From contig CASDYZ010000007.1 of assembly GCA_949285325.1 (NCBI GenBank), positions 17,215 to 81,214 of the forward strand: DNA of 64,000 nt. Reading direction: 5' to 3'. Positions 9,755-49,281 of the stretch are shown in pieces. Both the position numbers and the translations under genes were made by a program. Every line of letters begins with the position of its first letter. Positions within the stretch are counted from its first letter, which is position 1. The notes under the pieces were generated by a model. That model made no database searches and was not told the origin of the DNA. It saw only the letters and a program-made list of their open reading frames with translations. This DNA comes from an uncultured bacterium. Lineage in GTDB: Bacteria; Bacillota_I; Bacilli_A; RFN20; CAG-826.

Positions 9755-9870
9755 TCCTCCTTAAAAGGAGGGCAGTTAAAATTTTATCTTCCCTCCGCTA
9801 GCATTACCTAGATCAGGTACGGTCGATTCGAAGAAGAATCCTCTCAGTCAGGTTCGCCTAACTCCCAAAA
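9755..9870 (-). ncRNA. TPP (THI-box) riboswitch with SD-sequestering hairpin/terminator
   Basis: Minus-strand RNA reads GGGAGUUAGGCGAACCUGACUGAGAGG...CGACCGUACCUGAUCUAGGUAAUGCUAGCGGAGGGAAG, containing the conserved CUGAGA and ACCUGAUCUGGAUAAUGCCAGCGUAGGGAAG THI-box core, then CCCUCCUUUUAAGGAGG-AUUUUUU immediately before the ATG. Confidence 0.8.
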
Positions 9871-9917
9871 AGATTATATTAACTTTGTTAAATTAATAAA
9901 AGAGAAAATATATAAGT

Positions 9918-10616: not shown

Positions 10617-10696
10617 ATTTACAATTATCAAATATTTTATTGTTAAAATCTATTATTGATATATGTAAAACAATCAAATTATTCAATTCGTTGTGA

Positions 10697-11461
10697 TTAG
10701 TTTTCTATTATTTCTAATATTCCCAAATCTAGAAAAGACACAATAAGCAAAGATATAGTGTCATATACTTTTGTTTTGTTATATTTTATTTCTTCGTGTT
10801 CAAATATTTGTTTGTTAATTGTGCCCATATTGTCTAATTCTTCATAACCAAAATCCTTTTTGATAATCTCATATATTAACTTTGAGAAATTTTTATAATT
10901 TAAAAATATCCCATCTTCTTTTAAATCTTTAATTGAGTATTTATCTTTAGAATATTGTTTAATTTCTTTGCCACATGAAAATTGTCTATTATCGTTTTTA
11001 GACATTAATATAAAAGATTCAATACTTGGATAACTCAAAAGCAATAGACCATTTATTTCTGTTTCATTGTCTAAAGAATTTTTGAATATATCGATAGCTT
11101 TTAAAATTGCACCTGGTCTATTATTATTTCTATCGCGATCAAAAATAAAATATTTAAAACTATTAATAATTAATAAATCGTTATCTTTCATTTTTTTGTA
11201 AATCGCATCGATATAGTCTTGACTTGTAAAAATTTTATTAATTGCACTGTATTTCATTGGGATCAAATAAACTGTAGAATATTTATCGGTCTTACTTGTA
11301 AGTTTTATGATTCTATCTATACGTTTGTCGTAGGAAACTACTTCATAATTTAAAATTGTATGAAACAAATGAGATAGAATTTCTACTTCGGTGACATCTC
11401 CTTCTACAAAATATATGACCTTGCCTATTCTTTTATTTTTGTTTATTTTAATTTCTTTCAT
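10697..11461 (-). CDS. RloB-like / DUF4276-type TOPRIM-family protein, defence-module partner
   Basis: About 255 aa from ATG 11461 (track start is GTG); N-terminal KVIYFVEGDVTEVEIL matches the xxCEGxTE signature of RloB/OLD-type TOPRIM domains; overlaps the upstream ATPase gene by 14 nt. Confidence 0.6.
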   Translation of the reverse strand: MKEIKINKNKRIGKVIYFVEGDVTEVEILSHLFHTILNYEVVSYDKRIDRIIKLTSKTDKYSTVYLIPMKYSAINKIFTSQDYIDAIYKKMKDNDLLIINSFKYFIFDRDRNNNRPGAILKAIDIFKNSLDNETEINGLLLLSYPSIESFILMSKNDNRQFSCGKEIKQYSKDKYSIKDLKEDGIFLNYKNFSKLIYEIIKKDFGYEELDNMGTINKQIFEHEEIKYNKTKVYDTISLLIVSFLDLGILEIIEN

Positions 11462-12587
11462 ATAAAGGGACTCCGCCAAAAGCACCAGCCAAATACATTT
11501 TTTCCATGTTTTGTGATTCCCTCATGCTATTAGATGAAAACTTGTTCAACACACTACCATTATCATCAAAATCAACAGCAAATACTTGATCAGGTCTAAT
11601 AATGCTCGTTTTTAAAATATTAGTAGAGTGTGAGACAAAAAACAGTTGAGATTCGGTGCTGTTTTCATAAAAATATTTGACTAGCAACTCTTCTAAATCA
11701 TTGTGAAATCCAGAAGAAAATTCATCAACGGCGAGTATCCCACCATTTTTAATAACCATTAAATATGATGGCAAAAAATTTAATAAAATTTTATTGCCTA
11801 GTGATTCGAGATAAAAAGGTATCGGAGAAAGGTTTTTTCTTTTAATACGAAGCCTATTGGCGAAGGGAATTAATTCTATATTCCCAACGTCAGTTTTTGT
11901 ATATTCAATTCTAAAAGAGAAATTAAATCTTTCTAAAAAATCATTAATGTCTTTTTCACCATATTTGTCTAAATATGTTTGAAGAAATATTTCTCTATTA
12001 GTCGAAGCATCAAAAGAAACAAAAGGAACAACACTGCGGATAGGATTAAAATAGATAGATTTTTTAAGAAAATCAAATTCTTTTTTTAAGCATGGATAAA
12101 GAACAAAACCAGTATTGAAATAAATAGTCTTTAAAAATAATGTGTTAGGGTCAATAGAGTCATAATCTTCGTTTTCGGTAATATATGATTTTGCGGAACA
12201 ATTAACCCTATTCAATAACATTTTATCGTTTTCATATAACAATTCTTTTGTGATGCCTTTGGTTTTATGAAATTCAATTTCATATGTTAAATAAACATTT
12301 GCGTCTGGTTTAAAAACATAAGTAAAAGACATAGTGTTAGATTTTGTAAATCTAGAAAATAAATCGATTTGAACTGTATAATTTTTAAATAATAAATCCA
12401 ATAATAAAGTTATCGCGTTAAGTGCGTTAGTTTTGCCCGATGCATTCGCACCGTAAAAGGCACAACCCTTTAAAATATTATTAAATATATTTGCGTCCTT
12501 TAAATATTCAATTTTACTCGGCGCTAAATCTATAACTGTTTCTGAAGAAAAAGATTTAAAATTATTAAATTTAATTTTGACTAACAT
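11448..12587 (-). CDS. AAA_21/ABC-like ATPase (RloA/AbiLi-like) of a two-gene abortive-infection-type module
   Basis: Walker A YGANASGKTNAL, Walker B ILAVDEFSSGFH, H-loop-like FFVSHS, C-terminal YLAGAFGGVPLY typical of this family; ATG 12587 is preceded by GGAGG contributed by an upstream in-frame ATG. Confidence 0.7.
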   Translation of the reverse strand: MLVKIKFNNFKSFSSETVIDLAPSKIEYLKDANIFNNILKGCAFYGANASGKTNALNAITLLLDLLFKNYTVQIDLFSRFTKSNTMSFTYVFKPDANVYLTYEIEFHKTKGITKELLYENDKMLLNRVNCSAKSYITENEDYDSIDPNTLFLKTIYFNTGFVLYPCLKKEFDFLKKSIYFNPIRSVVPFVSFDASTNREIFLQTYLDKYGEKDINDFLERFNFSFRIEYTKTDVGNIELIPFANRLRIKRKNLSPIPFYLESLGNKILLNFLPSYLMVIKNGGILAVDEFSSGFHNDLEELLVKYFYENSTESQLFFVSHSTNILKTSIIRPDQVFAVDFDDNGSVLNKFSSNSMRESQNMEKMYLAGAFGGVPLYERN

Positions 12588-12704
12588 ATCAACCTCCATG
12601 TTTATTATAGTAATTTTTTTACATCAAAACAATATAATATGTAATTTTTTTACAGTTGCTCAATTAAATTGTTTTCTTTCGACTAAAATAATTATAATAA
12701 AAGC

Positions 12705-13799
12705 ATGAAAATACTCTTTGTTTTTAACCATCCCGCACCTTATAAGGTTGCGTTATTTAACGAATTAGCAAAACATGACGATATAGATTTGACAGTCTTT
12801 TTTGAAAGGATGAAAAATTCTGACCGCAAAAACGCGTTTTATAATGAAAAAACTTTTCAATTTAAAACTATTTTTCTTAAAAAAGGATATGTCGGTAAAG
12901 AAAATTCATTTTCATTTAAATTAAAAAAATACATAAAAAAACACTATAAAGAATTTGATTTAATCATCATGAATGGCTATTCCACATTTACAGAACTTTT
13001 TGCCATTAGATACATGATTAAACATAATATCCCGTATGTCTTTTATATTAATGGGGGCATCGTAAAAAAAGATAACCCGATAAAATATAAAATTAAAACT
13101 AATGTGATAAAACACGCTTTAAAATGTTTTTCACCATGCATTGAAGCAGATGAATATCTATACCATTACGGTGCAAAAAAAGAAGACATTTTTCACTACC
13201 CTTATTCAACTGTCTATGACAATGAAGTTCTTGCTAAACCTTTAACTAGAGAAGAAAAAGATATCATTAGAGATAAATACGCTCTTCCTAAAAATGTTGT
13301 CATCGCATCAGCGTTTTCTCAATTTATAAAAAGAAAAAATATTCTTGAGATGTTAGAAATATTTAAAGATAGAAAAGAATATTTATTACTGATTGGAGAT
13401 GGACCAGAAAAAGAAGAATATATCGAATATATCAAACAAGAAAAAATGAGAAATATTATCATCGTGTCATTCATGTCCAAAAAAGATTTATTTGAAATAA
13501 TTAAATCAACTGATTTCCATATCACTCTTTCAAATGAGGACATATATGGTCATACGATCAATGAAGCTTTTGCTAACGGCCTTCCTACTATCGCCTCTAA
13601 CAATATTATATCCGCCCAACATTTAATCAAGAACAATATCAATGGTTTTATAGTCAAAGATAAATCTTCAACGATAAAAGCTCTTGACAATATCGATAAA
13701 ATCAATATTAATAATGTGTTGAATACCGCGAGAGAAAACACGATTGAACTATCCGCGAGTATTCATTACGAAAGATTTAAGGGATTATTAAAAAAATGA
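12705..13799 (+). CDS. glycosyltransferase family 4 (GT-B, group 1)
   Basis: 364 aa; C-terminal E-x7-E-like motif (YGHTINEAFANGLPTIASN); ATG 12705. Confidence 0.75.
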   Translation: MKILFVFNHPAPYKVALFNELAKHDDIDLTVFFERMKNSDRKNAFYNEKTFQFKTIFLKKGYVGKENSFSFKLKKYIKKHYKEFDLIIMNGYSTFTELFAIRYMIKHNIPYVFYINGGIVKKDNPIKYKIKTNVIKHALKCFSPCIEADEYLYHYGAKKEDIFHYPYSTVYDNEVLAKPLTREEKDIIRDKYALPKNVVIASAFSQFIKRKNILEMLEIFKDRKEYLLLIGDGPEKEEYIEYIKQEKMRNIIIVSFMSKKDLFEIIKSTDFHITLSNEDIYGHTINEAFANGLPTIASNNIISAQHLIKNNINGFIVKDKSSTIKALDNIDKININNVLNTARENTIELSASIHYERFKGLLKK

Positions 13800-27440: not shown

Positions 27441-28355
27441 ATGGGAAATCCAAATTTAAAAGAAAATAAATTCAAACGTTTTGTCGCGGTGTCCATTCGA
27501 AATGTCATCAAATGTTTTTCACCTACCACATACGTCAAATTACAGTACAAATATATAACTGGACATAAGTTACGTCTAAATCCTCCTATAAGGTATACAG
27601 AAAAACTTCAATATTTGAGGTTATTTGTCTATCCAAAAACTCCACTTGTCTCTATGTGTGCTGGACGAGTAAGTGCTAGAAATTATGTAAAAGATGTGGG
27701 ATTTGAAAAGAATTTAATTAAAATTTATGGAGTTTTTGATAAATTTGAAGACATTGATTTTTCAAAATTACCAAACAAATTTGTTTTAAAATGTTCTCAC
27801 GCTTGTGCGTTTAATTATTTGTGCTACGACAAAGAAAAAATCGATTATAAAAAACTAAAAAAACAATTTGATAAATGGCTTAAAACGGACTATGGCAAAA
27901 AGACGGTTGAAAGACATTATTCTAATATTAAACCACAAATAATTGTTGAAGAATTTTTATTTGAAAACGATAAACTACCAACTGAATATAAAATACACTG
28001 CTTCAACGGCGTTGCTAAATCGATGTATGTTGTTACTTCAAGAGGTGTCGACATTCGTTATAACAATTATTATGTTGATTGGACTCCGTTTGATGGCTCA
28101 CAGTTCAATGGTTGGAAGAAAACTGATTATGAATTAAAAAAACCATCTAATTGGGACGAGATGGTCTTAATCGCAGAGACTCTTTCTAAGCCTTTCCCAT
28201 TCGTAAGAGTAGATTTATATAATATCGATGGAAAGATATATTTTTCTGAAATGACATTTACTCCCGCGAAAGGAACACTTATCCTCGATGATGATAAATG
28301 TGATTTTGAGATGGGAGAATGGTTAGATATAAGTAAATATATCAATACCAAGTAG
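27441..28355 (+). CDS. ATP-grasp fold amidoligase, TupA-like (teichuronopeptide-type)
   Basis: Track start 27402 is TTG; ATG 27441 gives MGNPNLKENKFKRF. Motifs FVLKCSHACAFNY ... YKIHCFNGVAKSMYVV ... RVDLYNIDGKIYFSEMTFTP resemble the ATPgrasp_TupA family. Confidence 0.6.
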   Translation: MGNPNLKENKFKRFVAVSIRNVIKCFSPTTYVKLQYKYITGHKLRLNPPIRYTEKLQYLRLFVYPKTPLVSMCAGRVSARNYVKDVGFEKNLIKIYGVFDKFEDIDFSKLPNKFVLKCSHACAFNYLCYDKEKIDYKKLKKQFDKWLKTDYGKKTVERHYSNIKPQIIVEEFLFENDKLPTEYKIHCFNGVAKSMYVVTSRGVDIRYNNYYVDWTPFDGSQFNGWKKTDYELKKPSNWDEMVLIAETLSKPFPFVRVDLYNIDGKIYFSEMTFTPAKGTLILDDDKCDFEMGEWLDISKYINTK

Positions 28356-29196
28356 TAAAAGGTATCATCATTTCATACACCATTATGGAGTAATCTAAAC
28401 CATATTCATCATGTAATTCATCTTCTATTAATTCAAATTCAATCGATATGCCACATAATCTAGATAAATTTAATCCATCTAGCGCAAAACCATAAAACCT
28501 ATAGCATCCTTCTGAGTGGCTTTCACCATAATTAGTTGGGATATTCTTTATCGTATAACTTGTTTTAATTTGGTTTAATGTATTATCAGTATTTTTTGTA
28601 TAAAAAGAAACACGCATTTCGATTGATGAAAAGTGTGGGTAAGATTCTTTTTCCTCATTAGTATAATCGACAGCGGCTTTAAAATTCATAGCAAAATAAG
28701 ATTTTCCGCCTTTATTGAAATCTTTAACTTCTTTATCAAACATGTGGCCAAAACCTTCTTCATTTAGTTGCACTCTCGCTAGTTGATAACGGCCGTTGCA
28801 AAACATTTGCCCATCAAATAATTTAGATAAATAACCATATCTAAAGGAGTCGTCGATCCTACTCATTTTGCGAGTCTCGCCATAAGCTTTGCCATATAAA
28901 TTAGGATCATCTACTCCTAATGGATTATCGTCCGAGTAAGAAAGACCACTATCTCGTTCAAAAGTATTTTCAGAATAGGTTTCAAAAACTTGGTCTATAC
29001 TATCTTGTAGTTTATAGTTTTGTATAGAAGTGACGTTATTTTTAAGTTGTCCATCCCAATGGCAATAATAATTTTCACTAAATATTGGGGAATTATAGGC
29101 GTTACCTTCATAAACATCATCTAACATCAAAGAACAAGATGAAGTAGACAACATAAATGTTAGAAATAAAACTATTTTATTCATCTTCGATTTCAT
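28342..29196 (-). CDS. putative lipoprotein, function unknown
   Basis: 284 aa; signal peptide with lipobox LSTSSC; 20-nt overlap with upstream membrane-protein gene. Confidence 0.5.
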   Translation of the reverse strand: MKSKMNKIVLFLTFMLSTSSCSLMLDDVYEGNAYNSPIFSENYYCHWDGQLKNNVTSIQNYKLQDSIDQVFETYSENTFERDSGLSYSDDNPLGVDDPNLYGKAYGETRKMSRIDDSFRYGYLSKLFDGQMFCNGRYQLARVQLNEEGFGHMFDKEVKDFNKGGKSYFAMNFKAAVDYTNEEKESYPHFSSIEMRVSFYTKNTDNTLNQIKTSYTIKNIPTNYGESHSEGCYRFYGFALDGLNLSRLCGISIEFELIEDELHDEYGLDYSIMVYEMMIPFTTWY

Positions 29197-30601
29197 CTGT
29201 TTCTACCTCCTTAGTTTGTTCGTTTTCTTCTTCTTGAGAACTGATATCAGTTACACTAATTTCTTGATAATGATACTTTTGTATTGAAGCGTACCCTAAT
29301 AAGAACAATGTGATAAGTCCTGGACCATTAAACAAGACAGGTACGACATTTGAATAATTAATATAAGGGGTATTGTCACCATTAATTAGGTTATAACCAA
29401 AGAAAGTGACAACAAAGGCAAGTAGAAGCGATTTATTTAAAATCGTCTCTTCTCCTTTAACAAAAAATTTAAGGACAAAATATAAACCAAATACTACTAA
29501 AACGATAATCGCGATAAAAGCGAATAGCCCACCTAAATACGCCGCGTCGAAAAGCCAAGAATTACTAAATGTAACACTGCCCGCTGGGTTTAAGCCAAAT
29601 AAATTTGAAATGTTAGATAAATTAACTACTTCATCGATAATCGCACCATATCTACCGAGAGTAAATATCTTGCCAATTAATGGAACAGAGGCAATCGCGT
29701 CGTGAATAGTTTTTAAAAATCCAACTTCGCTTTGAGATAGGAAAGACAATATCAAAATCCACAGTAAAAAGCAAGCAAGTACTATCCAAATAATAATTCT
29801 TATAGCCTTGCTTTTAACTAAATTTAATTTAGTCAAAATTACAATTAATGCGATTAAAATTAGTATTGCAATCGTTGTTAATAATGTGTAAATATTGCTC
29901 ATGAAAAGTAAAGTTAAAAATGCGATAAAGGCGTAAAATGCGTATAAAATAAATAATTTTGTTTGTTTTTTAGGAGAAAAATAAAATAGTCCAATGACTG
30001 AAGTTAACAAAAGAGAAGGGAATAAAATGAAGTATTCAATACTCACTTCTACAAATGAAAATTGAATTAAAGAATACGCAATGTCGCCGATCGGGGCTGG
30101 TGAAGGACGACCATTATAATAAAAATAAGAATTGGAATATATCAAAGGATAAAATGGGGTAAATTGAACCATTGAATAAAATAGACCAAGGACAGTGTAT
30201 AAGGCAAGTGCTCCATAGATGACGGTGAAAACTGTTTGAAGTTTAATGGCCTTAAAATAAGAAAATAAATATCCACATCCAATAAAAGCGATGACCATGA
30301 ACGGAATGAAAATCGCTTCAAGTGTACCAATATAAGTTCTACCCACTACTGAGACCACAACGAGCAAAGAATAAATAATTAAAGGTATTAATAAATACAA
30401 AAAATTACTCATCCCTTTAATTTTGATTTCTTTATACGAAGTGATAATGAGCCCAATAAAAAGTGTGATGCCTAAAAATGCGTAAGTTAAAATGGATGAG
30501 GTAAAAGTAAACACGGTAAACGCAAACACTTCTAAAGATAAAAATGATACGATACCTAAACTACTAGTTTTTTCATTGATATTGTCTTTTTTGTCTTCCA
30601 T
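29177..30601 (-). CDS. polytopic membrane protein, possibly Wzy/O-antigen-ligase-like; acidic C-terminal tail
   Basis: About 474 aa from ATG 30601 (track start 30616 is TTG); at least 10 TM helices with a larger loop late in the protein; C-terminus SQEEENEQTKEVETDEIEDE. Family assignment from topology only. Confidence 0.4.
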   Translation of the reverse strand: MEDKKDNINEKTSSLGIVSFLSLEVFAFTVFTFTSSILTYAFLGITLFIGLIITSYKEIKIKGMSNFLYLLIPLIIYSLLVVVSVVGRTYIGTLEAIFIPFMVIAFIGCGYLFSYFKAIKLQTVFTVIYGALALYTVLGLFYSMVQFTPFYPLIYSNSYFYYNGRPSPAPIGDIAYSLIQFSFVEVSIEYFILFPSLLLTSVIGLFYFSPKKQTKLFILYAFYAFIAFLTLLFMSNIYTLLTTIAILILIALIVILTKLNLVKSKAIRIIIWIVLACFLLWILILSFLSQSEVGFLKTIHDAIASVPLIGKIFTLGRYGAIIDEVVNLSNISNLFGLNPAGSVTFSNSWLFDAAYLGGLFAFIAIIVLVVFGLYFVLKFFVKGEETILNKSLLLAFVVTFFGYNLINGDNTPYINYSNVVPVLFNGPGLITLFLLGYASIQKYHYQEISVTDISSQEEENEQTKEVETDEIEDE

Positions 30602-30649
30602 AAATAAATTTATCAAAAAATATTTTACAAAATATTTATTGTATTAACA

Positions 30650-30680
30650 ATAATTAAAAAACCACCTCTTCGGTGGCGTA
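30650..30680 (-). terminator. rho-independent terminator (minus-strand orientation)
   Basis: Minus-strand reading GCCACCGAAGAGGUGGUUUUUUAAU: GC-rich 5-6 bp stem, 5-nt loop, U-tract. Lies 10 nt after the stop of a 46-codon ORF and about 50 nt upstream of the membrane-protein gene start. Confidence 0.45.
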
Positions 30681-30988
30681 CTTTTATTTTTAATCGGTAA
30701 ATGTCTCCGCGTCATCTACATTAAAGTTGATAGATTCGCTTATTGAGGAATAGGCTTTACAATACATTTCCGCCTCAGTGTAGGTGAGGTCATCTTTAAA
30801 TATATTTTCTTTCTTTTCTTTTTTTGACATAGGCGAATCCAACTTTCGAAAATTACTTTATCATAATGACTTATTTTAGTTGTAAAAAATCTTTCAAATT
30901 TTAGACAATGTAGAAATAAATTGTAAAAATATAAAGTTTAGTTTTTAATATTTATTTGTTATTATCAAATAAGAAACGGGTTGAGAAG

Positions 30989-31684
30989 ATGAAAAAAGAA
31001 TTAAATTTACCACAGATAGTCGCGAATAACTTAACATATTACCGCAAGACTTACGGCTATACACAAATACAATTAGCCAATAAATTTAATTATTCTGACA
31101 AAACTATTTCTAAGTGGGAAAGAGGAGAAAGTTTCCCAGATATTTTTGTTTTAAAAACTCTCGCTGATTTTTATGGAATAACAGTCAATGACTTCTTTAG
31201 AGAAAAGCCAAAAAAATATTATCCACCAATATTTAAAAAAAGATTCTTAATACTACTTTTATCGGTTGGGTTGGTGTGGCTTATCGCTTCTATCATCTTT
31301 GCATGTATGATGATATTCTCTAATGGTAGATTGTCCGACAGCTGGCTTGTATTTATTTTCGCCACTATACCGATGTTTATAATTTGTTTAGTATTCGCAA
31401 GCGTTTGGAAGCAAAGATTTTGGTCTTTTATATCCGTATCGGGCTTGATGTGGTGCGCGGCGACATCGATATATTTACCGTGGACTATGTACGCTCCTGG
31501 TGAATATTTATTCTTAATATTTATAATCGTCATCCCTCTTCAAGTTTTGGCCTTCCTTTGGTTTTTACTTAAATGGTCATTTAAATCATTTACAAATAAA
31601 GTCGCTAAAATTATTAGAAAAAGAAAAGAGGTTCCTACAAGTGAAACCTCTAATGATACAAATATTATTAGTAAAGAAGATTAG
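30989..31684 (+). CDS. membrane-tethered XRE-family HTH transcriptional regulator
   Basis: N-terminal Cro/C1-type HTH (LTYYRKTYGYTQIQLANKFNYSDKTISKWERGESFPDIFVLKTLADFYGITVNDFF) followed by about 4 TM helices; ATG 30989. Confidence 0.65.
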   Translation: MKKELNLPQIVANNLTYYRKTYGYTQIQLANKFNYSDKTISKWERGESFPDIFVLKTLADFYGITVNDFFREKPKKYYPPIFKKRFLILLLSVGLVWLIASIIFACMMIFSNGRLSDSWLVFIFATIPMFIICLVFASVWKQRFWSFISVSGLMWCAATSIYLPWTMYAPGEYLFLIFIIVIPLQVLAFLWFLLKWSFKSFTNKVAKIIRKRKEVPTSETSNDTNIISKED

Positions 31685-32544
31685 TCTTTAACCCCGCCAT
31701 CATTGTAATAGAGGATGCCGAGTGTTTTAGGTCCGCAGTGAGAAGAAATTGTACATCCCGCGGTGGTGACATAAATCTTTTTAAAGCCTCTATTTTTCAT
31801 CTTTTCATACGCCGCATCAACCATATCTTGTGGTGCGTAAGAATGGGTGATAAAACCGATTGATAAATCAGGATTATTGAATTCTTCAAGAGTGTCATCG
31901 CAGTATTTTTTAACGACTGCTACACCTCTTCCACTATATTTTTTGCCTGGGTGCATCTTACCTTGATCGACTATGATTTGAGGTTTGATGGCAAACATTT
32001 TTGCCGCAAAAGCTGCTAAACCAGAACATCTACCTCCCTTATAAAGGTAGTCGACAGTATTGACGACGAAGCTCGCTTGAACAGCACTTCTTCTTTCTTC
32101 AATTTTCTTTTTAACTTCGGCAGCGTCCAAGCCTTTATCGATTAACTGTCTTGCATATATTACTTGAAGAGCAATACCAGTGGCTAAAGACATTGAGTCG
32201 ATAACAAATACTTTACCTTTAAATTCCTCTTCTTCTGCTGCGAGCACTGCGTTCGCGTGAGTCGCGCTGATACCACCACTCAAACAAAGGTGAACAACCG
32301 CATCATTATCTTTTAACAATCCTCTAAAATATTCTTCAAATTGGAATGTATTAAAAGCTGCTGTTCTAGGAAGTTTTTTATTTTTCTCCACAAATTCAAA
32401 TATTTGAAGAGGATTTAAATCTACTCCGTCTTGATAAACTTTATCACCTAAAATAACTGTGCCATGTAAAATGCTCACATTATTTTCCTTGATGAGTTCT
32501 TCATTCATGTCGACTGTACTTTCAGTACTTAATGCAATTTTCAT
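31681..32544 (-). CDS. DegV-family fatty-acid-binding protein
   Basis: 287 aa; MKIALSTESTVDM ... typical DegV/EDD-fold N-terminus; SD aggag. Confidence 0.8.
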   Translation of the reverse strand: MKIALSTESTVDMNEELIKENNVSILHGTVILGDKVYQDGVDLNPLQIFEFVEKNKKLPRTAAFNTFQFEEYFRGLLKDNDAVVHLCLSGGISATHANAVLAAEEEEFKGKVFVIDSMSLATGIALQVIYARQLIDKGLDAAEVKKKIEERRSAVQASFVVNTVDYLYKGGRCSGLAAFAAKMFAIKPQIIVDQGKMHPGKKYSGRGVAVVKKYCDDTLEEFNNPDLSIGFITHSYAPQDMVDAAYEKMKNRGFKKIYVTTAGCTISSHCGPKTLGILYYNDGGVKD

Positions 32545-32638
32545 AATTAATTAACTCCTAAATTAAGATTCCACTTCAACAAAGATAGCATATTTTTGCG
32601 TAAAAAAACACCCACAAATTGCAGGTGAGAATTTCTAA

Positions 32639-33030
32639 TGGTGGAGCCGGCGGTGTCGAAACCGCGTCCGGAGACTACCCAACAATAACATCTACAGTTT
32701 AGATGAAATTGAATTTTAACAATCAATCAATAATTTCAACAAAGATTGAATGCGAGGTTGTAAGTTTTTCGTCTCATTAACCCAACCTATCAATGAGCTT
32801 ATCCTCTTGATAAAGACACCCTTGCTAGAGAAGAGAGGATGATCCTCTAGGGGGCGAGTTGCCCGATAATTAAGTATCGGTCCTGATATTAGGCGCTAAT
32901 TAAGCTGCAACTAATGAAGCACGAGGTGTGCTTCTCATAAAACTGTTGTCAGTTATTTTTGTTTGGTGATAACGTCACCACTCGACTGCCGTTAAAGCAT
33001 GATAGGTCCCCGTCGAATCCATTCGACCCC
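32639..33030 (-). ncRNA. ssrA: transfer-messenger RNA (tmRNA, ssrA)
   Basis: Minus-strand 5' end GGGGUCGAAUGGAUUCGACGGGGACCUAUCAUGCUUUAACGGCAG..., 3' end ...GGACGCGGUUUCGACACCGCCGGCUCCACCA (tRNA-Ala-like T-arm and acceptor with encoded CCA); candidate tag end GCA GCU UAA visible at plus 32900-32908. Confidence 0.8.
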
Positions 33031-33169: not shown

Positions 33170-33499
33170 ATGAAACACTTAATCTTTGTCATATTAGAAC
33201 ATTCTCACGCCGCAGAAGAAACATTAGTTAAATTATCAAAAATGGGATATAACGGAACAGTTATACCTTCAACATCATTAAAACACACACTAGAAAATGA
33301 TGGAGAGGTACCGATGTTTATCAATTTAAGTTTACTTGAACACGGTAAATTTGAAAATAACACTACTCTATATATCGTCGCAGAAGAAGAACAAGTAGAA
33401 AATGTATTAGATATCATTAGAACTACCACCAAACATTTTAAAAGATGTAGAGGTGGGATGTTTGTCGTCCCGCTTGAAAGTTATGAAGGAAGTTTTTAA
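33170..33499 (+). CDS. PII-like signalling protein, DarA/PstA-like (candidate cyclic-di-AMP receptor)
   Basis: 109 aa, the same length as DarA; C-terminus GGMFVVPLESYEGSF resembles DarA/PstA GGATVFVxPVDxFHQF; overall beta-alpha-beta PII-like hydrophobic pattern. Assignment by recollection of DarA sequences, not a search. Confidence 0.4.
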   Translation: MKHLIFVILEHSHAAEETLVKLSKMGYNGTVIPSTSLKHTLENDGEVPMFINLSLLEHGKFENNTTLYIVAEEEQVENVLDIIRTTTKHFKRCRGGMFVVPLESYEGSF

Positions 33500-33502
33500 T
33501 TT

Positions 33503-34816
33503 ATGTCTTTAGTTATTTCGAGTGTCCTTTGGGTAGCGATCGCTCTTTCATGTGGGCTATTGATGTCCAAATTGATGAAATTAATACACTTTCCTAACGT
33601 CACCGGATATTTGATTGGTGGAATTATAATAGGCCCTTGGGTTTTAGGTTTATTTGACCGAGATTTATTTAGCAATATTCTTTCAAATATTAGTTGGATA
33701 AGCGACATTGCCTTAGGTTTTATCGCTTTTACTATCGGTGGTTCATTTAAATTATCCGCGCTTAAAAAGGTTGGGAAAAGAGCGACTGTCATCACTGTAT
33801 TTGAAGCATTAGGTGGGGCGATTGTCGTCATCATCGGATTATTTATCGGATACTTTGCTGGTTTAAAAAATCTAGGTTTAACAATACCGATGATATTGAC
33901 ATTAGGTTCAATCGCATGCGCGACCGCGCCAGCCGCTACACTATTAGTCATCCAACAATATAAAGCAGAAGGTCCAGTAACTAGAACTTTAATACCAGTA
34001 GTCGCATTTGATGATGGTGTCGCTTTAATCGCATTTGCTATTTTATTTGCTTTATCTAAAGTACTTACTATCGGTGGCACATTTGATTTTATCAGCGGAA
34101 TTCTCATCCCAATTTTAGAAATTATTATTTCTCTTTTAATTGGGGCCGCCATTGGATTTATTATCTCACTAGCTACTAAATGGTTTACTGGTAGAGGCAA
34201 CAGGATGATAATTTGCATCGCCGCGGTGCTTTTATGTGTTGGTCTATCTTTGATAGAAACAAGTTCTTTAGGCTGGGGTTTCTCTTTTCAATTATCTAGT
34301 TTATTAACTATCATGTCTATGGGTGCAATATATGTCAACATGGCAAAAGGAGTAGAAACTACAGGTGTATTTATAGATAAATTTACTCAACCAGTATTTA
34401 TGCTATTTTTCATAATAAGTGGGGCAAATTTAAATTTTGGCATATTCATGGACGACTCTGCAATCTTAGTCATTGTCATCGCTTTGATTTATTTGGTATG
34501 TCGTGTCATTGGAAAATGGGGTGGATCCGCTGTTGGGGCAAACATTACAAACTGCGAACCTAACGTTAAAAAGTATCTTGGTTTTACCCTTATTCCACAA
34601 GCTGGTGTCGCCCTCGGACTAGCGTCATCTGCAAAATTATTTTTTGCAAATCTAACCGACCCAGATTTAGTTTTAATCGGTGATTTGCTTTATACTTGCA
34701 TAATTGTGAGCACAATTGTGTACGAACTAGTTGGACCACTCATCACAAAGTGGGCTTTGACAAAAGCTGGGGAAATAAAACAAGTAGAAAATAAAAACGT
34801 AAAAACTAGTAATTAA
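33503..34816 (+). CDS. cation:proton antiporter (CPA1/CPA2 Na+/H+ exchanger family) membrane domain
   Basis: 437 aa, about 12 TM helices; N-terminal motif IHFPNVTGYLIGGIIIGPWVLGLF typical of the Na_H_Exchanger family; starts 4 nt after the PII-like gene. Confidence 0.65.
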   Translation: MSLVISSVLWVAIALSCGLLMSKLMKLIHFPNVTGYLIGGIIIGPWVLGLFDRDLFSNILSNISWISDIALGFIAFTIGGSFKLSALKKVGKRATVITVFEALGGAIVVIIGLFIGYFAGLKNLGLTIPMILTLGSIACATAPAATLLVIQQYKAEGPVTRTLIPVVAFDDGVALIAFAILFALSKVLTIGGTFDFISGILIPILEIIISLLIGAAIGFIISLATKWFTGRGNRMIICIAAVLLCVGLSLIETSSLGWGFSFQLSSLLTIMSMGAIYVNMAKGVETTGVFIDKFTQPVFMLFFIISGANLNFGIFMDDSAILVIVIALIYLVCRVIGKWGGSAVGANITNCEPNVKKYLGFTLIPQAGVALGLASSAKLFFANLTDPDLVLIGDLLYTCIIVSTIVYELVGPLITKWALTKAGEIKQVENKNVKTSN

Positions 34817-47822: not shown

Positions 47823-49049
47823 TTAAAAAAATAAATTTTTTAAATAGAAAAATTGCTTTTGTGTTTCTTTGCAGTCTTTTCTATATCGAGGAATGTAGAT
47901 AATTTCATTTTTATTATTTACGACAACTGGCCAAATTTTTCTAAGCAATAAAGGCATTTTCCAATCGATTACTAAACGATTTAAATTCACATAGAAGTTA
48001 TCAATCTTATAAATATCATTCATATCAATATTACGAACAAAAAGAGGAAAATTATCAAGTTTAATTTCTCTTTCTTTAAACTTTGAAATAACGTCAAAAT
48101 AAAAATATTTATCATCGATAGGATTAACGTTTGCATCTAATATTTCATATCGATAATTATGAGAAAATGAAGAGGAAATAAAATAACAATATCCATATGA
48201 TTTTTCAAAACAAATATCACCATTTATTTTCAATGTCACATTAGGTTTTGTAGACAGCAATAAATGTTTAATTGAAAGGGCTGTCTTTTTAGACATTGGA
48301 CAATATAAATTTGAATTCTTTAAAAGCATATTTAAAGCGTATTGAAAAGAGATAAAATCAAGGTTTAGTAGGTTATTAATTTCATTTAGATTAATCTTAT
48401 TTAAATGGGAAAATATATCGACTAACTCTCTATTTTTATTAGCGATCTCTACTAGTATATTTTCTCTATCTTCTCTCTTTAATTTTTCAATTACATTATG
48501 CCTTATTTTATTCCTTATAAATTTATCCTCCAAATTGGATAAATCTAAAGCGTAAGGAACACTATTTTGTTCATTATATTGTATTAACTCTTTCTTAGTA
48601 AATCGTAGTAAAGGTCTGACTACTTTAATCCCCTTATTTAAAGTAGAAAATTTAATACCATACCACGATGATAAAATACCTCTTTTTTTCTGCAATAAAT
48701 AAGTCTCAATTAAATCATCTTGATGATGGGCAACAACAACCTCATCAAAAAAATTTTCTTCAACAATGTTTTTGAAAAAATTATATCTAATCTCTCGGCA
48801 CACTCCTTCGATATTACTTTTAATTTTTTCTTTGTTGTCGTATACATAAATATCTATATTATTATCCAGACAATATTTTCTTAATTTCCTTTCTTCTTCA
48901 TCTGATTCATCCCTTAAATGATAATTAACATGTGCGACACTAAAATTATAATTTTGAGATTTAAGCATATGAAAAAGGGCCATTGAATCAACACCAAAAG
49001 AACAGGCTAAAAGATATTTTTTATTATGGTCTAAAATTAATTTATTCAT
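47823..49049 (-). CDS. tilS: tRNA(Ile)-lysidine synthetase
   Basis: PP-loop LLACSFGVDSMAL near N-terminus; start taken at ATG 49049 (track start is TTG). Confidence 0.75.
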   Translation of the reverse strand: MNKLILDHNKKYLLACSFGVDSMALFHMLKSQNYNFSVAHVNYHLRDESDEEERKLRKYCLDNNIDIYVYDNKEKIKSNIEGVCREIRYNFFKNIVEENFFDEVVVAHHQDDLIETYLLQKKRGILSSWYGIKFSTLNKGIKVVRPLLRFTKKELIQYNEQNSVPYALDLSNLEDKFIRNKIRHNVIEKLKREDRENILVEIANKNRELVDIFSHLNKINLNEINNLLNLDFISFQYALNMLLKNSNLYCPMSKKTALSIKHLLLSTKPNVTLKINGDICFEKSYGYCYFISSSFSHNYRYEILDANVNPIDDKYFYFDVISKFKEREIKLDNFPLFVRNIDMNDIYKIDNFYVNLNRLVIDWKMPLLLRKIWPVVVNNKNEIIYIPRYRKDCKETQKQFFYLKNLFF

Positions 49050-49281
49050 GCTTTTTTTCTTCAAAACTCGGTATTTCTCTATTATTTTTCTCTAAAATGT
49101 ATGCAATATACGTTTTTTCTTTACCGTTTATTCTTATAATAATTTCATCTAAGTTTTTAACTATGGTAGAAGGCTTCGTCACCTTTTCATTAATAAAAAC
49201 TTTACCTTCTTCTATAAGCTGTTTGGCTATAGTTCTTCTTTTAATAATCATCGTCTTTTTTAAAAATAAATCTAATCGCAT
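49042..49281 (-). CDS. S4-domain RNA-binding protein (YabO/Hsp15-like)
   Basis: 79 aa; MRLDLFLKKTMIIKRRTIAKQLIEEGKVFINEKV S4 motif. Confidence 0.7.
   Translation of the reverse strand: MRLDLFLKKTMIIKRRTIAKQLIEEGKVFINEKVTKPSTIVKNLDEIIIRINGKEKTYIAYILEKNNREIPSFEEKKHE

Follow-up and report, generated by a model that had tools for sequence, protein, structure and literature searches.

A probable two-gene ABC ATPase and Toprim defence module of the AbiL/RloAB type inserted upstream of ung, with a conserved pair of palindromes in its promoter

What is a compact two-gene segment doing between ung, the uracil-DNA glycosylase (UDG) gene, and a cluster of glycosylation genes? The question was raised by a stretch of 64,000 nucleotides from an uncultured bacterium (assembly GCA_949285325.1, contig CASDYZ010000007.1), which we call the window. 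The initial annotation had read the segment as an AAA_21 ATPase paired with an RloB-like Toprim protein, that is, a module of the AbiL or RloAB type, and this core reading is supported by the domain identity of the proteins and by the conservation of their operon. We consider it likely that the module is a self-contained, horizontally acquired two-gene anti-phage system of the class that combines an ABC (ATP-binding cassette) ATPase with a Toprim nuclease, with a predicted logic akin to that of PARIS and the OLD nucleases. The locus is an acquired defence or toxin-antitoxin (TA) cassette, and is not part of the functions of ung or of the glycosylation genes. The present analysis adds clean evidence of insertion, a divergent nuclease clade and a conserved putative operator. 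The features of the module itself are the following.

10617..12704, no strand: inserted segment, 2,088 bp between the start codons of ung and the glycosyltransferase gene
11448..12587, minus strand: ATPase gene, 379 aa; AAA_21 / Rad50-SMC-type ABC ATPase, AbiLi-like
10697..11461, minus strand: partner gene, 254 aa, ATG at 11461; divergent RloB/AbiLii-like Toprim nuclease (predicted effector)
11448..11461, minus strand: overlap of the ATPase and partner genes, 14 nt; ATPase stop codon TAA at 11450-11448
12593..12597, minus strand: Shine-Dalgarno sequence GGAGG, 5 nt 5' of the ATG at 12587, read from the sequence

The two genes were found where they had been placed: the minus strand from 10697 to 12704 holds two open reading frames (ORFs) and a 117-nt upstream region. 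The flanks were also as claimed, with ung (UDG, PF03167) at 10616-9918 on the same strand downstream of the partner, and Glycos_transf_1 genes starting at 12705 on the opposite strand, divergent from the ATPase. The inserted segment contains the two module genes and their promoter only. The ATPase ORF had been listed as 12599-11448, and translation almost certainly begins at the second ATG, 12587 (MLVKIK...), since GGAGG lies 5 nt upstream of it, the family consensus is MLxKV, and the identical database protein, P0121, has 379 aa. The 14-nt overlap quoted in the annotation proved exact, the partner starting at 11461 and the ATPase stop codon lying at 11450-11448; this overlap suggests translational coupling, and the two genes are read as one translationally coupled operon. 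All of the quoted motifs were recovered in the translations, GANASGKTN, VDEFSSG, VSHS and YLAGAFGGVP in the ATPase and YFVEGDVTE in the partner.

The ATPase was assigned with ease. It matched Pfam AAA_21 (PF13304) with 75.4 bits against a cut-off of 27 (E 1.1e-20), over residues 47-329 and profile positions 3-303 of 304. Among the PADLOC hidden Markov models (HMMs) the best match was AbiLi (1.7e-51), followed by PDC-M12A over the full length (5e-30) and AriA over the generic core (6.8e-19), with weak matches to HEC-01A, GajA and PtuA. The AbiLi-like reading was thereby borne out, and the possibility of a transporter nucleotide-binding domain or a RecF/SbcC fragment, which the annotation had named as what would speak against it, was checked and fell away, the scores staying under the cut-offs of NCBIfam RecF (19.6 vs 172 bits) and SMC_N (23.3 vs 40). 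The Walker A motif GANASGKT(N) has its codons at 12452-12429, Walker B D288/E289 lies at 11726-11721, and the H-loop residue H320 at 11630-11628. The catalytic set (G46-T53, D288-E289, a signature-like E261-S262-x-G264 and H320) is intact, each of its columns being invariant or conserved to 90% or more among 30 homologues. An AF2 model built from these 30 homologues had a pLDDT (predicted local distance difference test) score of 87, and its top Foldseek matches were Rad50, SMC heads, PtuA and GajA (E 6e-11 to 1e-8, probability 1.00). The first gene thus encodes a complete ABC ATPase of the AAA_21 family with a head of the Rad50/SMC type. Its C-terminal tail, MYLAGAFGGVPLYERN, is conserved and modelled as disordered; it comprises the last 12 residues (368-379; 11448-11483), with pLDDT below 50 and the motif MYL[AS]GxFGG[IV]P (MYLxGxFGGxPxY). 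The tail may dock onto the partner or a neighbouring protomer, with a possible role in oligomerisation.

The partner required a family-level comparison. Its family consists of proteins of about 250 aa, of which a word-indexed search found 190; an exhaustive profile search gave 609 clusters (50% identity, E up to 0.001), 176 of them below 1e-30. We aligned 52 homologues, 31-49% identical to the protein of the window, and the columns G13, E20, G21, E25, D108, R109, D110, G138, L141, S143, Y144, P145, K168 and L246 were invariant, with E148 conserved in at least 90%. In the DNA, E20 is encoded at 11404-11402, followed by E25, D108-R-D110 at 11140-11132, S143-Y-P-x-I-E148 at 11035-11018 and K168 at 10960-10958, after which comes a C-terminal helical domain. 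In a Class 2 OLD nuclease the catalytic two-metal set is E400/E404/D455/D457/T506/E508/K562 (PMC6755086), and the series of the partner (E, E, DxD, S/T...E, K) follows the same order as this BpOLD set, matched by order and motif and not by superposition. The matches of the 52 aligned members to existing models were as follows.

PADLOC AbiLii: 34 of 52 members, best 4.1e-10
PADLOC PDC-M12B (PDLC04430): 23 of 52 members, best 2.3e-12
Pfam RloB (PF13707): 8 of 52 members, all sub-threshold, best 29.1 bits against a cut-off of 31.5, model positions 1-166 of 195
Pfam OLD-like_TOPRIM: 4 of 52 members, weak

The protein of the window itself matched PADLOC AbiLii at E 3e-6, a weak and partial match (profile positions 25-114 of 170), and none of the PADLOC PDC-M12B models. 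For comparison we assembled an alignment of canonical RloB proteins, 34 in all, starting from a plasmid gene of C. beijerinckii (annotated as 'RloB family protein', 146.5 bits to PF13707) that follows a distant relative of our ATPase. With default settings, hhalign against a single RloB sequence or against the 34-sequence alignment aligned only the EGxxTE motif. With a relaxed threshold the partner family and RloB were collinear over 201 columns, pairing VEGxxTE with TEGTxTE, YYIFDRD with VWVVFDKDD, and LLLSYPxIESF with AWSNxSFEYW, respectively. Foldseek of the partner model against PDB gave nothing below E 0.1, and the family profile against PDB sequences gave chance-level matches only (E above 0.3). 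GajA and OLD were among the fold matches of both proteins, weak ones in the case of the partner. We therefore regard the partner as a distant RloB/AbiLii-type Toprim protein, its active site apparently intact, that falls outside the current Pfam family. The annotation had proposed a search for RloB/TOPRIM families as the test of this protein, and the test was passed narrowly: the Pfam part failed, while the AbiLii match and the family-level matches listed above spoke for it. It had also suspected a divergent or uncharacterised subtype, which is borne out, though the argument used for it is not: the partner was called short, and at 254 aa it exceeds both the canonical RloB (219 aa) and the Pfam RloB model (195 positions).

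There were two further lines of evidence for a mobile unit. Firstly, the genes stay together. Among 80 species-representative genome loci found through the partner, an ATPase homologue lay immediately upstream in 79, the two genes overlapping by up to 13 nt or being separated by at most a few tens of nucleotides, and the sole exception has just 19 nt of upstream sequence. The hosts were mostly Clostridia and Bacilli, with a few Desulfobacterota, one Bacteroidaceae metagenome-assembled genome (MAG) and one Akkermansia MAG; the clade comes mostly from gut and rumen Bacillota, and cultured strains with the module include Ruminococcus albus AR67, R. flavefaciens ND2009, Defluviitalea phaphyphila, Tumebacillus flagellatus and Paenibacillus sp. 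YN15. Four copies were located on predicted viral contigs, each with its ATPase. Searches of annotated plasmids and phage genomes with the partner (tblastn) found nothing, and the ATPase found only distant relatives in the plasmid collection (identity 28% or less). Elsewhere, homologous pairs were situated beside AbiEii together with an AEP-TOTE helicase and an SLFN-like helicase, beside Phd/ParE, next to gyrB/gyrA, and between smpB and a phage integrase, in the last case with a second AAA_21 pair. Many Bacillota and a few other phyla carry the two genes as one inherited unit, in genomic surroundings unrelated to one another.

Some of these contexts deserve a description of their own. The nearest relatives (L003:1-4708 and L174:1-6697; ATPase 63% identical) lie in an island with AbiEii, DUF6577, and AEP-TOTE/SNF2-like and SLFN-like helicases, and a 134-aa gene without Pfam match is divergently transcribed just upstream. 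In L170 (8801-10646; also in L171) a second, different AAA_21 ATPase of 357 aa and a 263-aa partner without Pfam match are convergent to the first pair, so that in L170 two ATPase-partner modules are stacked between smpB and the phage integrase, a tmRNA/smpB-side integration spot.

The second line of evidence is the insertion itself. Relatives of the UDG (46-69% identity) were scanned, and 47 loci of at least 6 kb were examined; neither module gene was present in any of these 47 ung loci. In 23 syntenic relatives the flippase, three glycosyltransferases, and then the divergent ung, the thiamine transporter, DUF2207, DUF402 and tsaE were all kept, and the gap between the tblastn matches of the first glycosyltransferase and of ung was 48-85 nt, compared with 2,088 bp in the window. 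This short interval without the pair in all 23 points to a 2-kb insertion here, and the placement between ung and the glycosylation cluster, as annotated, has thus direct support from synteny. A gain in this lineage is much more likely than 23 independent losses, with the direction judged against comparators of which even the nearest is distant. No recombinase, flanking repeats or tRNA were found around the insertion, and a repeat scan for target-site duplications or terminal inverted repeats gave nothing convincing.

Base composition was of less help. Both genes had been described as more AT-rich than their neighbours, in line with horizontal acquisition, and the GC comparison sustained this for the partner, at 23.7% the lowest of 44 ORFs (z = -2.35). 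It did not do so for the ATPase, at 28.0% (z = -1.2) no lower than the adjacent glycosyltransferases (28-29%). In this genome low GC does not by itself mark foreign DNA: one PP-loop (tilS-like) gene with a housekeeping role, at 47823-49064 on the minus strand, has 24.9%, nearly as little as the partner gene. GC and GC3 (GC at third codon positions) were therefore rejected as weak evidence of acquisition.

The upstream region contained an element that the annotation had not mentioned. Two exact 14-nt copies of TGTAAAAAAATTAC, with the palindromic core GTAA-N5-TTAC, precede the ATPase on the minus strand, one at 12654-12641 and the other 31 nt downstream at 12623-12610, and both are embedded in promoter-like sequences.

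12640..12654, minus strand: operator-like palindrome site 1, TGTAAAAAAATTACA, in the spacer of the promoter-like pair TTGAGC (12663-12658) / TATTAT (12639-12634)
12610..12623, minus strand: operator-like palindrome site 2, TGTAAAAAAATTAC, filling the 17-nt spacer between the -35-like TTGTTT (12632-12627) and TATAAT (12609-12604)
12604..12609, minus strand: predicted -10 hexamer TATAAT, consensus match only, read from the sequence

The motif was present in all five of the unrelated loci checked first. With up to 2 mismatches allowed, the 14-mer occurred within 250 nt upstream of the ATPase start in 81 of 89 loci, at a density of 5.56 per kb upstream and 0.059 per kb in the rest of the loci. By the half-site definition, at least one GTAA-N5-TTAC was present in 80 of 84 distinct upstream regions and at least two in 53, and the spacing between sites was 31 or 32 nt in 48 of 54 cases. 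When 34 loci were aligned on site 2, its 3' half gave a TTGCAT -35 box, followed by TG-n-TATAAT; the site thus overlaps either the -35 box or the spacer. The strict motif occurs four times in the 64-kb window, two of these here, and none of 20,000 shuffles of the intergenic region yielded two sites. The motif was absent upstream of the canonical AAA_21/RloB pair and of the second, different AAA_21 pair in L170. A role as a recombination site was considered and rejected, as the ung-proximal end of the module has no operator-like site.

The half-sites resemble those of some familiar regulator boxes (cre/CcpA TGTAAGCGCTTACA, TnrA/GlnR TGTNA-N7-TNACA, the ARG box and the CRP/FNR types), but the spacing differs. 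Moreover, the palindrome is kept across four phyla, which makes a host regulator a poor explanation. Since the motif accompanies the module from phylum to phylum and from context to context, and lies at one end only, ahead of the predicted start of transcription, it would be an operator bound by a protein that the module encodes. The simplest reading is that the palindromes are putative operators for autorepression by such a protein, as in type II TA systems. The full proposal, that the clade is autoregulated through a dual palindromic operator, three helical turns apart and over the core promoter, that is read by its own protein without a recognisable helix-turn-helix (HTH) domain, we hold tentatively, at somewhat below an even chance.

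Two candidates for the reader of the operator emerged. Lineages without a good site were L006/L011, L079 and L046/L173 only, and their ATPases are short (338-354 aa, e.g., L006:4989-6005), without two segments (around residues 128-150 and 236-250) that the operator-bearing clade conserves; their partners are of normal length. This is a hint that the insertion segments of the ATPase may read the operator, coming from three lineages that are also the most divergent. The other candidate is the OLD-like helical domain of the partner, by analogy with OLD nucleases, whose helical domain is reported to resemble HTH controller proteins (PMC6755086). Module copies were also observed on two contigs (L006 and L064) of one MAG, Lapin-032__bin111; one has the short ATPase and no operator, the other bears the operator. 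In the searchable library consulted, no description of an operator pair was found for AbiL, and nothing relevant was found on PDC-M12, or on RloB with autoregulation or an operator.

How would such a module work? It is most likely an abortive-infection system with TA-like behaviour. The partner would be a toxic nuclease effector, and the ATPase would restrain it and sense infection. A phage-derived cue, or loss of ATPase function, would free or activate the nuclease, which would then cut host or phage nucleic acid (tRNA or DNA) and so abort the infection. A module protein or the complex may repress its own promoter through the palindromes, as in type II TA systems. Published work on relatives gives the following picture. 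AbiL of L. lactis confers abortive infection and acts after phage transcription (PMC13064643), AbiLii of F. nucleatum is toxic in E. coli (PMC3985639), and AAA ATPases neutralise TOPRIM_OLD toxins in tested pairs (PMC10440598). AbiL has been grouped with PARIS as an ABC ATPase plus TOPRIM system (PMC11464382; PMC13064643), and in PARIS the Toprim nuclease is kept bound to an ATPase scaffold; once a phage protein triggers the system, the nuclease is released and tRNA is cleaved (PMC11464382).

Several points weigh against a defence system of this kind. The clade is known from its genes alone. The partner of the window has no Pfam match and nothing significant in NCBIfam, and the alignment of its family with RloB by hhalign is weak (E 0.0015, probability 16%). 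A recognisable HTH domain was found by Pfam and NCBIfam in neither protein, no defence genes flank the module in the window, and the deviation in GC is weak and not diagnostic of acquisition. In the single AbiL homologue examined in trans, that of F. nucleatum, AbiLi did not neutralise AbiLii (PMC3985639), so that an antitoxin role of the ATPase is not general or simple.

Four other explanations were weighed against these data. The module could be a selfish addiction cassette that stabilises itself or its carrier DNA and has no role against phages. The compact operon of two genes, palindromes in the promoter as they are typical of type II TA systems with autoregulation, and a scattered distribution would all suit such a cassette; moreover, AAA/TOPRIM pairs have come out of a TA network and were themselves validated in toxicity-neutralisation assays (PMC10440598). 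However, the prototype AbiL was isolated through its phage-resistance phenotype (PMC13064643), the closest HMMs are models of defence systems, and some relatives stand beside AbiEii and helicase defence genes; we find it unlikely as the whole account, bearing in mind that addiction and defence are compatible roles and do not exclude each other. Less probable still is a catalytically inert partner, Toprim-like or a DNA-binding regulator, with the ATPase or an unlinked factor as the effector. The lack of a Pfam match for the protein of the window and its weak fold matches would fit this, and the conserved operators need a DNA-binding factor of which none is recognisable, while the helical domain of OLD nucleases is likened to HTH controller proteins (PMC6755086). 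Yet the invariance of E20, E25, D108, D110, S143 and K168 in the 52 homologues, with the conserved E148, is the pattern of a working two-metal Toprim site, and the AbiLii and PDC-M12B HMMs between them match most members of the family.

The two remaining explanations tie the pair to neighbouring functions, and we give both very little credence. One would make it a housekeeping DNA-repair pair (RecF/SbcC/OLD-like) working with the adjacent uracil-DNA glycosylase, as could be imagined from its position just 5' of ung in the same orientation, without an intervening terminator-like site, and from the Rad50/SMC-like fold of the ATPase. Against this, the pair is missing from 23 relatives whose ung neighbourhood is otherwise the same, homologous pairs occur in unrelated contexts, and the RecF and SMC_N scores are far under their cut-offs; the ung-linked repair role was rejected on synteny. 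The other would make it an accessory of a restriction-modification (R-M) locus, in keeping with the origin of RloA/RloB and the PADLOC PDC candidates, which were found within type I R-M, BREX or DISARM loci (PMC10440598; 10.1101/2024.01.29.577857), but neither here nor in the other contexts examined is the pair flanked by hsd, BREX or DISARM genes. An anti-phage module of the AbiL/RloAB type, acquired by insertion, is the reading that we prefer.

A few observations on the surroundings are recorded here for completeness. No terminator-like site was seen between the stop codon of the partner and ung (10617-10696), and read-through from the module promoter into ung and the genes beyond it could occur. 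Between ung and the Thia_YuaJ thiamine transporter gene (9748-8786), upstream of the latter, there is a thiamine pyrophosphate (TPP) riboswitch at 9773-9878 on the minus strand (57.8 bits). Further along the window, a tmRNA gene (32639-33030, minus strand) is situated near an HTH_3 protein (30956-31684) with a weak PADLOC RmrA match (2e-10), and two ORFs without Pfam match occupy 28342-29196 and 29177-30616; the region 28342-33030 may be another accessory region, next to the tmRNA. Two long ORFs, 33496-34218 (minus strand) and 33503-34816 (plus strand), overlap almost wholly on opposite strands, and at most one of them is likely real.

The interest of the module lies in the class it belongs to. 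ABC-ATPase plus Toprim systems (OLD, Gabija, PARIS, AbiL and RloAB) are among the most widespread defence designs, with mechanistic models for PARIS, Gabija and OLD only, and a 2026 review leaves open whether AbiL and RloAB act like these three (PMC13064643). The present clade is attractive for experiments, being a minimal 2-kb cassette of promoter, ATPase and predicted nuclease with cultured hosts, and its sharply defined, conserved putative operator offers a handle on how such systems stay silent. If autoregulation by its own protein is true, the sensor complex would bind DNA in a sequence-specific manner, which would be new to the AbiL/PARIS/OLD class, and occupancy of the promoter could be coupled to activation, for example if the complex were titrated off the operator during infection, like conditional cooperativity in TA systems.

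Of the closest known systems, AbiL of L. lactis has the same order of an AAA_21/Rad50-like ABC ATPase followed by a Toprim/OLD-like protein. Both adjacent genes of the PADLOC definition, AbiLi (1.7e-51) and AbiLii (3e-6), are present, at the level of HMM matches and not by PADLOC's own thresholds or system rules; the likeness was judged through the PADLOC models and not through the lactococcal proteins themselves, and the partner match is weak. Unlike the plasmid-borne AbiL, the module of the window is chromosomal, in a low-GC, uncultured, gut-type Bacillota-like host. RloA/RloB shares the gene order and the motif series [VT]EGxxTE, hhhFD[RK]D, SxxxxE and a conserved K. The partner differs from RloB in having no PF13707 match and in being about 35 aa longer, with inserted helices between the Toprim strands; furthermore, the canonical pair has no operator motif, and the module of the window is not within a type I R-M locus. 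PDC-M12 is close through the ATPase of the window, which PDC-M12A matches over positions 1-367 of 369 (5e-30), whereas PDC-M12B matches 23 of the 52 homologues and not the partner of the window. HEC-01, also an ABC ATPase plus TOPRIM, is represented by the weak HEC-01A matches of the ATPase. The PDC systems are candidates without experimental support (10.1101/2024.01.29.577857).

With PARIS (AriA/AriB) the module shares an ABC ATPase, a separate Toprim nuclease and the proposed logic of a sensor that sequesters an effector, and PARIS and AbiL were grouped on the AAA15/21 ATPase tree (PMC11464382). There is, however, no match to AriB (a DUF4435-type Toprim), and the AriA match covers the generic AAA_21 core; AriA itself is a 55-kDa protein with a larger insertion, compared with 379 aa in the ATPase of the window. 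The trigger of PARIS is Ocr and its target tRNA-Lys. OLD and GajA of Gabija share the ABC ATPase and Toprim chemistry and the same catalytic residue set (by order and motif), but in both a single polypeptide carries ATPase and Toprim, and Gabija has the GajB (UvrD-like) helicase in addition, while here there are two ORFs and no helicase nearby. A cis element of the kind that serves for autoregulation in type II TA modules is present and conserved in the promoter here, in the form of the palindrome pair as a predicted operator. The module is distinct from PARIS, from Gabija and from the fused OLD nucleases. It is an uncharacterised member of a class that is already well known and widespread, and in its predicted working it resembles AbiL, RloAB and PARIS.

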